From assembly GCA_028688415.1 (NCBI GenBank), contig JAQTYF010000001.1:464627-528626 (forward strand): 64,000 bases of DNA, in the 5' to 3' direction. The notes beneath the pieces are model-generated. The model was not told the DNA's origin. It did not search any database and saw only the letters and a program-made list of their open reading frames with translations. The position numbers were made by a program, and so were the translations under genes. Below, piece by piece: positions 374 through 7,000 of the stretch (position 1 is its first letter; each line of letters opens with the position of its first letter). This DNA comes from Candidatus Moraniibacteriota bacterium. Lineage in GTDB: Bacteria; Patescibacteriota; Minisyncoccia; Moranbacterales; UBA1568.

Positions 374-586
374 TTAAGCAGCTTGTTTTGTTTTTTCGGA
401 TTTGAGTTTTGGAGCCATATCGATCATTTCTTTCCCCTTGTAGGTGCCACAAGTAGGGCAAACACGGTGAGAAAGCACACGAGCTTTGCATTTTGGGCAT
501 TCTTGGGTATTGATCAATTGGACATCATACTGCTTACGAGCACGGTCACGTCGATGATGGGTATGTCTCTGTTTTGGGTTTGCCAT
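374..586 (-). CDS. rpmF: 50S ribosomal protein L32
   Basis: 70 aa basic protein MANPKQRHTHHRRDRARK...ECPKCKARVLSHRVCPTCGTYKG, a typical L32 zinc-ribbon motif. Confidence 0.85.
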   Translation of the reverse strand: MANPKQRHTHHRRDRARKQYDVQLINTQECPKCKARVLSHRVCPTCGTYKGKEMIDMAPKLKSEKTKQAA

Positions 587-676
587 ATCAGTAGAAAATT
601 ATTAACATTCCCACTATAACATCCCTTTTCACTTTTGGCAAGAAGATGATAGACCAAATCACAAAACTCAATACAC

Positions 677-781: not shown

Positions 782-796
782 TTTAAAAATTGTGTT

Positions 797-855
797 TTAT
801 CTCTTCTTCGGTTTGAGTACATTCGCGAATCGTTTATTCACATTTTCAGGAAAGA
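797..855. repeat. Direct repeat copy 1: duplicated 3-prime end of rnhB (encodes ..PENVNKRFANVLKPKKR-stop on minus strand)
   Basis: Nucleotide identity of about 38/40 with 2814-2858. Minus-strand translation reproduces the last 18 aa of RNase HII with 7 synonymous codon changes. Confidence 0.8.
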
Positions 856-2797
856 CGAGCTCATTCTTTATTCACCTTTTGGAGGAAAATGCTCTTTTAT
901 CTTTTGTACAAGATCAGGATGATAATGTTCTGCTTCTTTACTTCTCGTTTTCTGTTTTTCGAACCATTCTGGATTTGCAACTCGAAATTGTTCTACAAAT
1001 TTTTTGATAGATATATGACTTGAAGATATTTTACCCTGAAGACTTCTAGCGCTTTCCCATCCCTCCTTCTTTTGTGGAATAGATGTGAAATGTTCCATTA
1101 TTTTCTCCACTAATTCGGGATGATAATGTTCTGCTTCCATATTTCTATTTTTCTGTTTTTCGAACCATTCTGGATGTGCAACTCGAAATTGTTCTACAAA
1201 GATTGCGATAGGTTTATAATCTGAAGATATTTTATCACGAAGACCATTAGCGCTTTCCCATCCCTCCTTCTTTTGTGGAATAGATGTGAAATGTTCCATT
1301 ATTTTCTCCACTAATTCGGGATGATAATGTTCTGCTTCTTTTCCACTTGCTTTCTGTTTTTCGAACCATTCTGGATGTTCAACTCGAAATTGTTCTACAA
1401 AGATTGCGATAGGTTTATAACCTGAAGATGTTCTATTACAAAGACTGCTGGCGCTTTCCCATCCCTCCTTCTTTTGTAGAATAGATGTGAAATGTTCCAT
1501 TATTTTCTCCACTAATTCGGGATGATAATGTTCTGCTTCTTTAGAGTTCGTTTTCTGTTTTTCGAACCATTCTGGATGTTCAACTCGAAATTGTTCTGCA
1601 AATGTTTTGATAACATAGAAATCTGCGATCTTTCTGTTGTGGAAACTCCCCGCGCTTTCCCATCCTTCTTTCTTTTGTGGAACAGATGTGAAATGTTCCA
1701 TTATTTTCTGCACCAAATCAGGATGATAATGTTCTGCTTCTTTGCCTCTCGCTTTCTGTTTTTCGAACCATTCCGGATGCTCAACTCGAAATTGTTCTAC
1801 GAATGCCATGATAGATTTATAATAATCTGAAGATATTTTTCCCCTAAGACCACTGGCACTTTCCCATCCCGCCTTTTTCCGAGGCACCTCAACTCGTGGC
1901 ACAAAATCAGATTGAGGAATATTTACTGTAGTTTGTTTTTCTCCTTCATCTTTACTATTTACCTCTGCAAAAAACTCCTCTGTAAGATAAGCAACCATCT
2001 TCTTCCTCCAAAGAGGACTCTGGATGAGTCGTCTGCCTGCTTCTGGAGTCTCTTTGATCAAATCATTGAATGCATTTTTGTTTCGAACATCAAGTTGTTC
2101 AATCGGAACAGCAAGAACTTCTGTATCAAGGATATATGAAGCATTTCCTTCTTCTTCACAAAGATAGACGACTCTATTCAAAGACTCTATCAAGACTCTG
2201 TAGTAGGGGTGCTGTCGCATCATTTCATCTGTTGTGGTTCCTTCTGTAATACGGATAGATGTTTCTTCTCCTTCTTGTGAAAGAGTGTAACCAAGGTCAT
2301 TTTCGAGTATATAGAGGAGGGTAAGAAGACGTGGTATGAGTTTTTTTCGTTCCACTCCAGCACCTGATCCAGAAATAATGCCGCCTTTTCCTTCTTGAGG
2401 AGGAAGAATGACTGTGTCTCTCATCTCTGTCTGTGAAACAATGAGGTTCCGTAGCTGTGTCATAGTTTGCTCTCTTTCTGAGACAGCCTGAAGGGTTTCT
2501 GTGACATCGGGGATGTTCATTGCTTGTAGAGCTCTGTTTTCCACTTCTGCATCTACAAGAGGAATGACACTCTGTGTTTTTTTGTATTCAGTCACTGCTT
2601 TTTCAATCAATACTACAAGCTCATTTAATGTAGTATCAAAAAATGTCTGGACATTCTCAGGAGAAACTGAAGTGCTCAGTATTTTTTGATAGATTTTTTG
2701 GAGTTCTACTTTCAACTGTTCTTTGGGTGGTTGGAATTCGAATGAGGGCATAACGGATAGAAAGATATTATTAAGTTTATCATAACACAGAAAATCT
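856..2797. mobile_element. Candidate single-gene insertion between duplicated rnhB 3-prime ends
   Basis: Bounded by the direct repeats at 797-855 and 2798-2858. The only cargo is the 651-aa repeat-protein gene. No recombinase inside. Confidence 0.4.
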
Positions 2798-2823
2798 TTA
2801 CCGTTTTTTTGGCTTGAGTACAT
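868..2823 (-). CDS. Hypothetical protein with a roughly 300-aa N-terminal domain and 5-6 C-terminal tandem repeats of about 67 aa (HPEWFEKQK...EAEHYHPELVEKIMEHF...KKEGWESA)
   Basis: 651-aa ORF. DNA periodicity is about 200 bp between 870 and 1900. The first 26 nt overlap rnhB, so the true start may be the internal Met near 2751. Confidence 0.6.
   Translation of the reverse strand: MYSSQKNGKDFLCYDKLNNIFLSVMPSFEFQPPKEQLKVELQKIYQKILSTSVSPENVQTFFDTTLNELVVLIEKAVTEYKKTQSVIPLVDAEVENRALQAMNIPDVTETLQAVSEREQTMTQLRNLIVSQTEMRDTVILPPQEGKGGIISGSGAGVERKKLIPRLLTLLYILENDLGYTLSQEGEETSIRITEGTTTDEMMRQHPYYRVLIESLNRVVYLCEEEGNASYILDTEVLAVPIEQLDVRNKNAFNDLIKETPEAGRRLIQSPLWRKKMVAYLTEEFFAEVNSKDEGEKQTTVNIPQSDFVPRVEVPRKKAGWESASGLRGKISSDYYKSIMAFVEQFRVEHPEWFEKQKARGKEAEHYHPDLVQKIMEHFTSVPQKKEGWESAGSFHNRKIADFYVIKTFAEQFRVEHPEWFEKQKTNSKEAEHYHPELVEKIMEHFTSILQKKEGWESASSLCNRTSSGYKPIAIFVEQFRVEHPEWFEKQKASGKEAEHYHPELVEKIMEHFTSIPQKKEGWESANGLRDKISSDYKPIAIFVEQFRVAHPEWFEKQKNRNMEAEHYHPELVEKIMEHFTSIPQKKEGWESARSLQGKISSSHISIKKFVEQFRVANPEWFEKQKTRSKEAEHYHPDLVQKIKEHFPPKGE
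870..1900. repeat. Intragenic tandem repeats, period about 200-204 bp, about 5.5 units
   Basis: The recurring motif gctttcccatccctccttcttttgtggaatagatgtgaaatgttccattattttct.. appears near 1051, 1251, 1453, 1654 and 1856. Confidence 0.8.
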
Positions 2824-2858
2824 TCGCGAATCGTTTGTTCACATTCTCAGGAAGAGCG
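2798..2858. repeat. Direct repeat copy 2 (authentic rnhB 3-prime end)
   Basis: Matches 797-855; see copy 1. Confidence 0.8.
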
Positions 2859-3514
2859 AGAAGGACGGGGCGGAATGACATTCGATGGATAGGACACGGG
2901 CCGAGATGACGCAGGGCATCCATATGGACTTTCGTCCCATAGCCTTTGTGCTGTGCGAATCCATACCCCGGATATTCCTTGTCCGCTGTTTCGATGATGC
3001 GATCACGAGTCACTTTCGCGATGATAGATGCGGCAGCAATCGATTTCACAATACCATCCCCTCCTACCACCGCTTCTTGTGACGATGAATAACTCGGAAT
3101 AAGCTGATTACCATCAACCAAAAGATGAGTGTTTCCTACTGATTCACGAGGGAGTTGTTTCGTCAGTTGTGACACAGCGCTTTTCATCGCGAGAAATGTG
3201 GCCTGGAGAATATTCACTCGATCAATCGTTTCGGCACTGACGATGCCGACACCGACGTAAAAATATTCATGGATAAAATCAAAAAGTTCTTCCCGTTTTT
3301 TCTCAGAAAGCTTCTTGGAATCACGGATGAGTGCAAACGTTTTGGCGAGTTCCTCTGGAATCTGGAAAGAGAGGTCTCGATAGCACACTGCCCCCGCGAC
3401 GACTGGTCCTGCGAGCGGGCCCCTCCCTGCTTCATCGATGCCAATGACAAACAAGGGTGGCTGTCCATCCCCTCGTATCAGACTCTGTTCTTTATCAAAC
3501 GTTGTTTCAAACAT
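2798..3514 (-). CDS. rnhB: Ribonuclease HII
   Basis: FVIGIDEAGRGPLAGPVVAGAV catalytic motif, 238 aa. Confidence 0.9.
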   Translation of the reverse strand: MFETTFDKEQSLIRGDGQPPLFVIGIDEAGRGPLAGPVVAGAVCYRDLSFQIPEELAKTFALIRDSKKLSEKKREELFDFIHEYFYVGVGIVSAETIDRVNILQATFLAMKSAVSQLTKQLPRESVGNTHLLVDGNQLIPSYSSSQEAVVGGDGIVKSIAAASIIAKVTRDRIIETADKEYPGYGFAQHKGYGTKVHMDALRHLGPCPIHRMSFRPVLLALPENVNKRFANVLKPKKR

Positions 3515-3874: not shown

Positions 3875-4033
3875 TACCTAATATCTAATAACTTGCCCCG
3901 CTCTTTTTATTGCGTGGTTTTTTAATTTTCAATTTCCCCTTTTAAACGAAGTTTTTGAATTAAAAAAAATTTGATATTGAGATATTGATTAGATATTAGA
4001 AATTAGAAATTAATAATTAGAAATTAAATTGCT

Positions 4034-7000
4034 ATGCAATTTACTCATCTCCACGTTCACTCACACTATAGCCTCCTCACGGCACTCCCGAAGCTCGAGG
4101 AACTTTTGGCGCAGGCCAAAGAATACGGCATGACATCACTCGCACTTACCGACACCTCTGCTCTCTATGGTGCCGTCGAGTTCTACATGAAGGCCAAGGA
4201 AGTCGGCATCAAACCAATTTTTGGTGCAGAAATATTCGTTTGTGAGAATCTCGAAAGCAAAAACAATACAGCAGAGGATCGTCGTCGTCATCAGCTCGTA
4301 CTCCTCGTCAAGAATGAAGCTGGCTACAAGAATTTAATGAAAATCATTTCGATTGCTCAGCTCGATGGATTCTACTACAAGGCCAGAGCTGACAAAAAAC
4401 TCCTGAGACAATATCACGAGGGACTTATCGCACTCTCAGGATCACTCCAGGGAGAAGTCCCTTCGGAAGTCATCTACGGCAATCAAGAACGAGCCAAGAT
4501 GGCTGCTCTCGAATATCAGGACATATTTGGCACAGGAAATTTCTATCTCGAACTCGGACCAAATTTCGAGTATGAGAATCAGATGATTGCCAACCAAGGA
4601 CTCATCCAAATCAATCGTGAAACAGGCATTCCAATAGTTGCCGCCTCGGATGTACACTACGTCAAGAAAGAACACGCAGAAATACAAGACATTCTCCTTT
4701 GTATCCGAGACAACAAAAAAGTGACTGACAAAGAACGTTTCAGTATGATGTCGCTCGATCTCTCGATGCGCTCGGAAGAAGAAATGACTCAGATTTTCCG
4801 AGACTTTCCAGAAGCTATTACCAATACACAAGTCATCGCCGATGCTTGTGATTTCACCATTCATCTCGGAGAAAATCACCTCCCATCATTCCCTCTCCCA
4901 GAAGGTGAGACGGCAGATACATTCTTACGTAAACTCTGTGAAATAGGACTGACGAAACGTTATGAGAGACAAACCATCACCGAAGAACAAAAAAGTCGTA
5001 TGGACTATGAGCTCGGTGTTATCGAAAAAACAGGATTTGCATCTTACTTCCTCATCGTGCAAGATTTCGTCAACTGGGCAAAGGAAAATGGCGTCGTCGT
5101 CGGTCCCGGACGTGGATCGGCAGCAGGGAGCTTTGTCGCCTATCTCACAGGCATCACCGATCTTGATCCGATCAAGTATGTCCTCCTCTTCGAACGATTT
5201 TTGAACCCTGAACGTATTTCAATGCCAGATATCGATATGGACTTTGCAGATACTCGCCGTGATGATGTGCTCAATTATGTTCGTGAGAAATATGGCAATG
5301 ATCACGTCGCACAGATCATCACGTTTGGGACGATGGCAGCACGCGCTGCGATACGCGATGTCGGTCGTGCTCTCGGATTTGCCTATGACATTTGCGACAA
5401 AACTTCCAAGATGATTCCGATGTTTACTTCTATCACCAAAGCTCTTGCTGAAGTGCCAGAATTCAAAAAATGGTATGCAGAGAATGCTGATGCGAAAAAA
5501 CTAATCGACGCTGCTATGAAAGTCGAAGGTCTCGTACGTCATGCTTCGATGCACGCGTGTGGTGTCGTGATTACGAAAGACCCTGTCACAGAATACACTC
5601 CCCTCCAACGTGTATCCGGTACTCGTGTTGGTGTTGTGACGCAATATGCCAACTCGACCAAATGCGCTGCTGTCGAAAAAATTGGTTTGCTCAAGATGGA
5701 CTTTCTCGGACTCAAAAACCTCACCATTATCCAGAATGCTCTTCGTATCATCGAAAAAACACGAAACGAAGTGATCGACATCGAAAAAATTCCTATCGAT
5801 GATGCACTCACATTCAAACTCCTTCAAGAAGCACACACAACTGGTGTTTTTCAGTTGGAAAGTTCTGGGATGAAACGGTATCTCAAACAACTCAAACCGA
5901 CCATCTTCGAAGATATCATCGCAATGGTCGCCCTCTATCGTCCAGGTCCGATGGACTATATACCTGACTTCATCGGTGGCAAACATGGAACAAAGAAAAT
6001 CGAATACCTCCATCCCTCACTCGAACCGATTCTCCAAAACACATACGGTGTCGCTGTATATCAGGAACAGCTGATGCAGATCGCTCGTGAATTGGCTGGA
6101 TTCAGTTATGGTGAAGCTGACGTGCTCCGTAAAGCGGTCGGCAAAAAAATTCTCGCTCTCGTCGTCGAGCAACGAGAAAAATTCATCGATGGTTGTATCA
6201 AAAATGGAGTGCAGAAAAAAGTAGCAGAAAAAGTTTTCTCATTCATCGAGCCATTTGCTGGATACGGATTCAACCGTTCTCACGCCGCCTGTTATGCTCT
6301 CATCGGATACCAGACTGCTTATCTCAAAGCGCATTATCCAGCAGAATTCATGGCAGCGCTTCTCACTTCTGATCAGGACAACATCGAACGTATCGCCATC
6401 GAAGTACGTGAAGCCAAAGAAATCGGTATCGAAGTACTCGCTCCTCATATCAATGAAAGTTTCGGTGAATTTGCTGTAGTGGCCACCAAAGACACCACTA
6501 CCAAACGTGTCCGATTTGGACTCAATGCTATCAAAAACGTCGGGACGGTCGTTGCTGAAGAAATCGTACTCGAACGCAAACGGAACGGAAAATATATTTC
6601 GCTCGAGAATTTTGTCGAACGAGTGAAAACCAAAGATCTCAATAAAAAATCTCTCGAGGCACTCATCAAAGTCGGTGCGCTCGAAGGTTTTGGTGAGAAA
6701 AATCAACTCCTCGAGAGTATTGACGCTATCTTGCAATATGGGAAAAATCTCAAAACGATTGCTGAAACACATTCAAGCAGTCTCTTCGGAGAGATGACCA
6801 TGGAAACAAGTAAAATAAAATTGATTCCAGCTCTCATCGCTACCAAAAAAATGACGCTTGGATGGGAAAAGGAACTCCTCGGTCTCTATGTAAGCGATCA
6901 TCCCGTGAGTGAATATCGATCCTATTTCAACAAAACAACCGTATCGATACACGACCTCGAGAAACAACCCGATGACAGTCGTGTCCGTATCGGAGGAGTC

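Follow-up and report, generated by a model that had tools for sequence, protein, structure and literature searches.

Mobile DNA can settle in an essential gene without harm to it when the incoming element brings along a replacement for the gene end that it displaces, a trick known from integrase-bearing prophages and genomic islands and from the homing open reading frames (ORFs) of fungal mitochondria. Restriction-modification (RM) gene complexes, too, reportedly enter chromosomes by an 'insertion with long target duplication', as described by Nobusato et al. in 2000; the same term is applied to RM complexes by Furuta et al. 2010 (PMC2853133). In the mitochondria of Allomyces macrogynus and a Glomus sp., free-standing LAGLIDADG and GIY-YIG homing-endonuclease genes, the mORFs, form 'gene hybrids' in atp6, atp9, cox2 and nad3 (PMC3630166). 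Here we describe an insertion of related architecture at the 3′ end of rnhB, the gene for RNase HII, at positions 796–2860 of a 64,000-nucleotide stretch of DNA (the window) from Candidatus Moranbacteria, a lineage of the candidate phyla radiation (CPR; Patescibacteria). CPR bacteria have tiny genomes for which few recognised mobile elements have been described, and their exchange of genes is poorly understood. With a little better than even confidence, we read the insertion as a single-gene mobile cassette whose protein drives the insertion, homing or integration of its own gene.

The cassette is recognised by two copies of the rnhB end that bracket its gene, with the following parts:

2798–3514, minus strand: rnhB (RNase HII, 238 amino acids; Pfam RNase_HII, 1.6e-38), the target gene
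2797–2860, minus strand: proximal copy of the rnhB end (attL-like), which completes the functional rnhB
2752–2797, minus strand: spacer of 46 nt from the rnhB stop to the cassette ORF start
868–2751, minus strand: cassette ORF, 627 amino acids, the only gene between the repeat copies; its frame is open up to 2823
796–859, minus strand: distal copy of the rnhB end (attR-like remnant), with its stop at 797–799
813–835 and 2814–2836: identical core of 23 nt, a perfect match that holds the 10-bp palindrome ATTCGCGAAT

An earlier note, made from the sequence alone, had pointed to direct repeats of the rnhB end, and a repeat search of the window bears this out: 796–859 and 2797–2860 align over 64 nt with 83% identity at a spacing of 2001, with a local-alignment score 26 standard deviations above that of shuffled flanks (z = 26). 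Translated on the minus strand, both copies read ..PENVNKRFANVLKPKKR-stop. The last 18 rnhB codons fall inside the proximal copy; the distal copy starts a few nucleotides past the cassette ORF stop (868–870) and lies outside any long ORF. Between the two 54-nt coding stretches there are eight nucleotide differences across seven codons (gag/gaa, aac/aat, aag/aaa, cca/ccg, aaa/aag twice and cgg/aga), exactly the seven synonymous codon changes that the note had counted, and all eight are synonymous. In simulations, peptide and stop survived in only 1 of 400,000 sets of eight random substitutions, corresponding to P ~5e-6 under neutral decay. The similarity runs ~10 nt further upstream (LAL versus LVF) and stops 1–3 nt past the stop codon. 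Because all differences are synonymous, a duplicated pseudogene in decay does not account for them: selection for coding acted on both copies, in different backgrounds as the note had supposed. In our best explanation the two rnhB ends are xenologous, that is, derived from different genomes, and it is for this reason that they differ only synonymously. The 23-nt core is the probable exchange region; by analogy with a trmD locus described below, the proximal copy from core to stop would be the replacement end supplied by the element.

Relatives identify the 2,001-bp, single-gene unit as an insertion. Orthologues of rnhB (64–98% identical) lie in conserved dnaE-rnhB-rpmF synteny. In L140 (L-numbers denote fetched loci), where RNase HII is 98% identical in amino acids and the DNA ~90% in nucleotides, there is no cassette, and the rnhB stop is followed by ~150 nt and then by the rpmF promoter and start. 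L141 (RNase HII 84%) and L142 (86%) likewise pass directly from rnhB to rpmF with no cassette gene, and in the ten species-level relatives L001–L010 (RNase HII 64–81% identical) rnhB adjoins dnaE on one side and rpmF on the other. Since rnhB directly precedes rpmF in L140 and in 12 Moranbacteria that are more distant, the unit is an insertion, as had been proposed. Compared with these empty sites, homology in the window picks up again at the rpmF promoter (~641):

374–641, minus strand: rpmF (L32) at 374–586 and a promoter-like site at 641–613, where empty-site homology resumes

The site is occupied too in L081 (GCA_028699965.1), an assembly of the same population that is 99.92% identical over 8,751 nt, and because this assembly is independent, an assembly artefact is excluded. 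The insert has a GC content of 35–41%, as against 44–49% in the flanking genes. Its neighbours in the window are dnaE, rnhB, rpmF, nusB and rnc; the earlier statement that no recombinase is linked to it holds, and the repeat search of the window found no terminal inverted repeats at the insert ends. A consensus promoter was sought in the 46-nt spacer and none was found, so the cassette ORF may be co-transcribed with rnhB.

A further feature begins directly at the stop codon of the displaced copy:

656–798: imperfect hairpin with 43-nt arms and a 57-nt loop; RNA fold −51.8 kcal/mol, z −4.6

The rnhB-rpmF spacers of L140, L141, L142 and L001 lack anything like this hairpin, which may act as a terminator or be a small insertion in its own right. 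Among relatives the rnhB-rpmF spacer ranges from ~15 to ~150 nt, and from this variation in length it looks like a turnover hotspot.

At a second locus, L109, where a homologue of the cassette gene lies at the end of trmD, the exchange of gene ends can be followed to the nucleotide level. L143 and L144 belong to the same species (99.5% identical to L109 over 3.3 kb downstream and 97.9% upstream) and are without the family gene; relative to them, L109 carries a 1,667-bp insert with one gene. In L109, the proximal trmD copy agrees with L143 as far as GGCGATCA, beyond which it is foreign until the stop; the remnant is foreign before GGCGATCA and thereafter equals L143, downstream terminator and flank included. 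Both switches fall inside one 8-nt interval, with identity blocks of 13 and 15 nt adjacent. Because the switches mirror each other against L143, the occupied site is a reciprocal hybrid, B-O-P′ ... P-O-B′: the product of a crossover of the chromosomal end B-O-B′ with an element-borne end P-O-P′. TrmD proteins 97–100% identical to that of L109 come in two C-terminal types, and trmD ends natively in the P′ arm (..INKWREGKKR) in strains without the family gene, including L145 (a complete Paceibacterota genome, CP129473.1), L147 and L149–154. The natural occurrence of this allele is direct evidence for the proposal of the note that an element brings in a replacement end with a coding history in another background.

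Strains of this Paceibacterota species also differ downstream of trmD. Those with the end ..IEVWRNKKRV carry a 276-amino-acid gene of unknown function downstream (L143 4741–5571), and those with ..INKWREGKKR (L145, L147, L149–154) have a 55–70-amino-acid ORF in its place. Because the downstream gene goes with the type of trmD C-terminus, repeated replacement at this gene end is suggested.

The same architecture recurs within the family of cassette proteins, for which 53 metagenome loci and several contigs encoding members were fetched. The 300-nt flanks of each gene were compared with each other, with 148 ORFs of at least 250 amino acids from the same kind of loci as controls. A flank-repeat score of at least 44 was reached by 7 of ~38 family loci and by 0 of 148 control ORFs (Fisher p=9e-6); the seven scored 44–85 and the control maximum was 36. 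As at the window, strong imperfect direct repeats bracket the family gene alone in L109 (55 nt, z 30), L126 (44 nt, z 29), L094 (44 nt, z 20), L097 (38 nt), L115 (37 nt) and L106 (27 nt), and weaker flanking repeats occur in L139, L102 and L082. In at least seven independent loci the bracketed unit holds the family gene alone within 1.7–2.3 kb. The repeats correspond to the following parts of the target genes:

L109: last 27 codons and stop of trmD
L082: last 10 codons and stop of lepA
L094: C-terminal 26 codons of a 47-amino-acid ORF; identical core of 32 nt
L126: 23 codons of an S1-domain gene, stop-terminated in the remnant
L115: first 12 codons (5′ start) of the downstream gene

The family gene runs parallel to its target in the window and L082 and antiparallel to it in L109 and L094. 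Repeat identity across loci is 73–94%, with an identical core (of at most 32 nt, in L094) and arms that carry many synonymous differences and conservative replacements. This core-and-arm pattern is that of two orthologous gene ends joined by crossover, unlike a fresh target-site duplication. A same-strand tRNA gene lies at most 450 nt upstream of 9 of the 54 family genes. With six further family loci of the same architecture, the proposal in the earlier note that an element targets a gene end and supplies its replacement extends well past rnhB. The note had also considered that the gene might always lie downstream of rnhB, or that the flank might be intrinsic to it; family genes sit at other targets, rnhB sites are found empty, and the flank is not intrinsic because the carried flank differs with each target.

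Several of these loci have features of their own. Structured RNA-like units of ~140–170 nt adjoin tRNA-Tyr on both sides of the family gene in L106 (157–323, 370–505 and 2385–2522) and L127 (~1583–1722 and 2950 onward). They start with GTGCGCCGG(A/G)G, end with C(T)CCCGGCGCAC(CA) and have fold z values of −6.6 and −8.9; from their start and end sequences, the unit ends pair like an extended tRNA-Tyr acceptor stem. With no Rfam match and no ARAGORN call, the units could be an undescribed tRNA-like RNA, or an element resembling a miniature inverted-repeat transposable element, with terminal inverted repeats that mimic a tRNA end. In L086 (1564–6991), the family gene begins 55 nt after tRNA-Gln and is followed by a HEPN/AbiU2-like gene (8-nt overlap), a serine recombinase, an AbiV-like gene and a LOOT RNA, a region that looks like a defence or mobile island. 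L115 carries two paralogous family genes (1632–3065 and 3962–5392; 477 and 476 amino acids, with similar N-termini) 900 nt apart with a 264-amino-acid gene between them, and it is the second that is bracketed by the 12-codon duplicates. In L083, the starts of the family gene P0004 and of the downstream release-factor gene (4992–5006 and 6660–6674) share TAAT(A/T)AAGTATGACT, which takes in the ribosome-binding region as well as the ATG and first codon. This match is of borderline significance (z 3.2) and may be a short duplicate of a gene 5′ start, as in L115.

The cassette is indeed a single gene, as first described, and the length given then, 651 amino acids, is that of its longest reading (868–2823). 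The first 24 codons of that reading overlap rnhB, and the start at MPSFEF (2751), which is used by homologues and by the NCBI annotation of a 99.9% identical assembly, gives 627 amino acids. Repeats of ~67 amino acids with a DNA period of ~200 bp were also correctly seen. There are five of them, in place of the '5-6 near-identical' copies reported, and they are 79–86% identical at the DNA level (period 201, 4.8 copies, 83% matches). The protein is laid out as follows:

1966–2751, minus strand: N-terminal conserved domain of ~260 amino acids (amino acids 1–262)
871–1878, minus strand: five tandem modules of 67–68 amino acids each (amino acids 292–627)
1675–1878, minus strand: module 1 (amino acids 292–359)
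1474–1674, minus strand: module 2 (amino acids 360–426)
1273–1473, minus strand: module 3 (amino acids 427–493)
1072–1272, minus strand: module 4 (amino acids 494–560)
871–1071, minus strand: module 5 (amino acids 561–627)

Confident AlphaFold models give the N-terminal domain (N-domain) a four-helix bundle and a five-stranded alpha/beta subdomain, and its invariant residues include E71, R141, Y147, D152, R179, Y183, C198, E200, E201, N203, K225 and W248. A known family or fold was sought for it and none was matched, in keeping with the earlier failure to recognise this part. Comparison of the whole protein with Pfam, NCBIfam, PADLOC, PHROGs and PDB sequences gave no real match; the matches that were listed are not real, because they are sums over the repeats and no single stretch passes alone. 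Domain searches revealed no LAGLIDADG, GIY-YIG, HNH or His-Cys box endonuclease domain in the protein, and neither a tyrosine or serine recombinase nor a transposase domain in the ORF, and searches of the insert found no restriction or modification domains.

Structure prediction of the repeat unit had been recommended in the earlier note along with that of the N-domain. Each module is predicted to fold as beta-alpha-alpha-wing-alpha and is superposable on the DNA-binding domains of MerR, Par, RacA or Xis, a winged helix of the MerR/Xis type. Within each module the variable residues lie in the helix-turn-helix (HTH), and the wing and the third (last) helix are conserved. The cassette protein is thus a predicted array of five DNA-reading modules behind a conserved N-domain. 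Its modules would share their fold with the MerR- and excisionase-type winged helices of pSK1 Par, RacA, MerR and mycobacteriophage Xis, and differ from these in that a single chain carries five such units in tandem after an N-domain unrelated to them. The Pfam model INT_rpt (PF14882; gathering threshold 26.5 bits) has no match in the window protein, on which no Pfam model reaches threshold, and matches the arrays of other family members weakly, with 17–18 bits in the L106 and L109 proteins, under that threshold.

The number of repeats had been expected to vary. It is the same in the two available assemblies of the population, though it ranges from 1 to ~10 among homologues. What does differ between these assemblies is module 3: the window and L081 have only seven differences in 8,751 nt, all within 1392–1438 (47 nt, the HTH part of this repeat), and these change six amino acids (C438W, Y445K, I448M, F451L, E453D and Q454E). 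The L081 variants were not copied from another repeat. As five of the seven turn the base into G in L081, they may stem from an error in sequencing or assembly; the alternative is real hypervariation of the DNA-recognition helix.

An exhaustive profile search places the window protein in a family that, clustered at 50% identity, numbers 463 clusters at E<=1e-30, rising to 1,934 at E<=1e-3. The match to the N-domain begins near the N-terminus in nearly all of the 150 best matches listed, and the family layout is constant: a ~260-amino-acid N-domain, always N-terminal, is always fused to HTH arrays that vary in type and number. Other members carry INT_rpt-like, HTH_50, Cro-like, HTH_11 or HTH_36 units. 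Searches of phage, plasmid and IMG/VR collections turned up no family member, and a literature search found no paper describing the family. The 67-amino-acid winged-helix unit also occurs outside the family, in four to seven copies at the C-terminus of superfamily 2 (SF2) helicases (P0012, P0027, P0030, P0037 and others), which have ResIII, SWI2_SNF2 and Helicase_C domains and are restriction-like and PADLOC PbeA-like. Because of this second context, the unit can be regarded as a DNA-targeting module that is exchanged between effector domains.

These observations suggest how the cassette might have arrived. Along the minus strand, the locus consists of the rnhB body, its completing end, the 46-nt spacer, the 627-amino-acid ORF, the displaced end, the native spacer and rpmF. 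Arrival would have been by reciprocal exchange, P-O-P′ x B-O-B′, within a short identical core, as seen for L109 and L143, to give B-O-P′ as the functional gene and P-O-B′ as the remnant. That the family protein drives this insertion is, from the comparisons above, the most likely step. Its HTH array would read a long (30–80 bp) target at a gene or tRNA end. In a homing route, the protein would cleave the empty site inside its core; the two broken ends would each pair with one donor copy, and the cassette would be copied in by repair along with its own gene end, as in fungal mitochondrial mobile ORFs. Alternatively, a circular form could undergo Campbell-type integration by an integrase-like, site-specific exchange; both routes predict the same junctions. 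Insertion would be nearly cost-free, because the essential host gene stays whole through the replacement end. We propose only tentatively that the N-domain represents a new class of site-specific DNA endonuclease or recombinase whose target is read by a modular, exchangeable HTH array.

Compared with known systems, the cassette recombines familiar traits without the defining enzyme of either mORFs or integrase elements. As in mORFs, a gene core is completed by a foreign C-terminal part, the element is a single ORF, and a native remnant (C*-terminal in the mORF hybrids) is left behind (PMC3630166). The two ends differ mostly synonymously in both, the native remnant is closer to relatives (seen here for L109 and L143), and the single-ORF element measures 1–2 kb. 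The host, however, is a bacterial (CPR) chromosome in place of an organelle, and the ORF has a novel N-domain and an HTH array instead of LAGLIDADG, GIY-YIG or HNH; its endonuclease activity is putative. It is also free-standing and not fused in frame, lies in either orientation relative to the target, and in other family cassettes is found at a gene 5′ start or a tRNA flank. With prophages, genomic islands and integrative and conjugative elements it shares a 3′-end target, a replacement end as carried in attP, diverged direct repeats of the gene end, a target gene that stays intact, a frequent location at tRNA 3′ ends and empty relatives, and the family member L109, compared with L143, also has hybrid attL and attR sites around a short identical core (an 8-nt interval). 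It differs from them in having no tyrosine or serine recombinase, no excisionase gene and no other cargo, and in its size of 1.7–2.0 kb with one gene. RM insertions have in common with it the lack of a recognisable mobility gene, target repeats of at least 30 bp that often cover a gene 3′ end (57–64 nt in the window), an unsettled mechanism and hosts presumed capable of DNA uptake; here the cargo is other than RM, the window copies are 83–86% identical to each other as against at least 94% for RM duplications, and the family repeats are hybrids of two alleles (L109) rather than the duplication of one target. Insertion sequences and transposons are set apart by the absence here of a transposase and terminal inverted repeats and by the long, diverged duplication.

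The RM precedent raises the question of whether the protein acts at all. Its gene could be passive cargo, an ordinary gene for a DNA-binding protein (a regulator, a nucleoid- or partition-like factor, or a defence component) brought in by natural transformation, when a circle or fragment with the gene and one gene end enters by RecA-dependent homeologous crossover; this would equal the 'insertion with long target duplication' of RM genes. We hold such an origin to be rather unlikely, although the cassette protein has no catalytic domain that was found, the identical cores, 23 nt in the window and 32 nt in L094, come close in length to a minimal RecA processing segment, and RM genes have 30–400-bp target duplications and no mobility gene, mostly in naturally competent species (PMC2853133). 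The 67-amino-acid repeats on restriction-like SF2 helicases, and the one family gene in an Abi/HEPN island, are further points in favour of passive cargo. Passive entry leaves unexplained, however, why flanking repeats are enriched in one family (7 of ~38 versus 0 of 148) and how new targets arise with a matching element-borne end (rnhB, trmD, lepA, S1 and tRNA ends). Moreover, the L109 exchange sits in an 8-nt block despite the adjacent 13- and 15-nt identity blocks, and the family repeats, at 73–94% identity with arms diverged at many synonymous sites, are unlike RM duplications, which are at least 94% identical. A quite improbable account is that the cassette is a satellite or relic of a classical integrative element, with att sites recognised by a tyrosine or serine integrase encoded elsewhere or lost. 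Hybrid attL and attR sites, targets at gene and tRNA ends and a short exchange interval are typical of Campbell integration by an integrase, and in L086 a serine recombinase lies two genes away. Yet the repeats bracket the family gene alone (1.7–2.3 kb) at no fewer than seven independent loci with different targets, which would need many different integrases; the neighbours at the window, L109 and L082 are housekeeping genes; and phage, plasmid and IMG/VR collections lack the family. That the rnhB end was duplicated locally in an ancestor and then drifted, or that the repeat is an assembly artefact, is effectively refuted by the all-synonymous divergence, by 13 relatives with empty sites (one at 98% amino-acid identity), by the agreement of two independent assemblies and by the recurrence of the architecture at other genes in other genomes.

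Several observations also weigh against a cassette that is mobilised by its own protein. The main weakness is that the N-domain has no recognisable catalytic motif or fold. No circular or excised form was found among short contigs, and ~30 of 38 family loci have no flanking duplication detectable in the 300-nt flank test. The tRNA-Tyr loci are confounded by the repeated tRNA-like RNA units in the target region. Protein clades do track targets (51–95% identity within a tRNA-Tyr clade, 62% for a tRNA-His pair), and this association could also reflect vertical inheritance of old insertions. At the window itself, the empty site of L140 (~10% diverged in nucleotides) agrees with the proximal copy at four differing sites and with the distal copy at two; because the nearest empty site is so far diverged, the window copies are not assignable as native versus imported.

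Taken together, the data point to a widespread one-gene element, with hundreds of protein clusters and many different conserved targets. Even if the gene is passive cargo, the L109/L143 junctions are a clean natural case of gene-end replacement by transfer between lineages of uncultivated bacteria, and a duplicated gene end that differs synonymously offers a practical marker for such insertions. If the protein is the active agent, it would couple a new domain that cuts or joins DNA to a modular array that reads it, of interest to mobile-element biology and possibly to targeted DNA insertion. At ~2 kb and one gene, the cassette would then be smaller than any other self-mobilising bacterial element known, a counterpart of the mitochondrial mobile ORFs that would have spread through CPR/Patescibacteria via the ends of essential and tRNA genes, carrying a spare gene end along.

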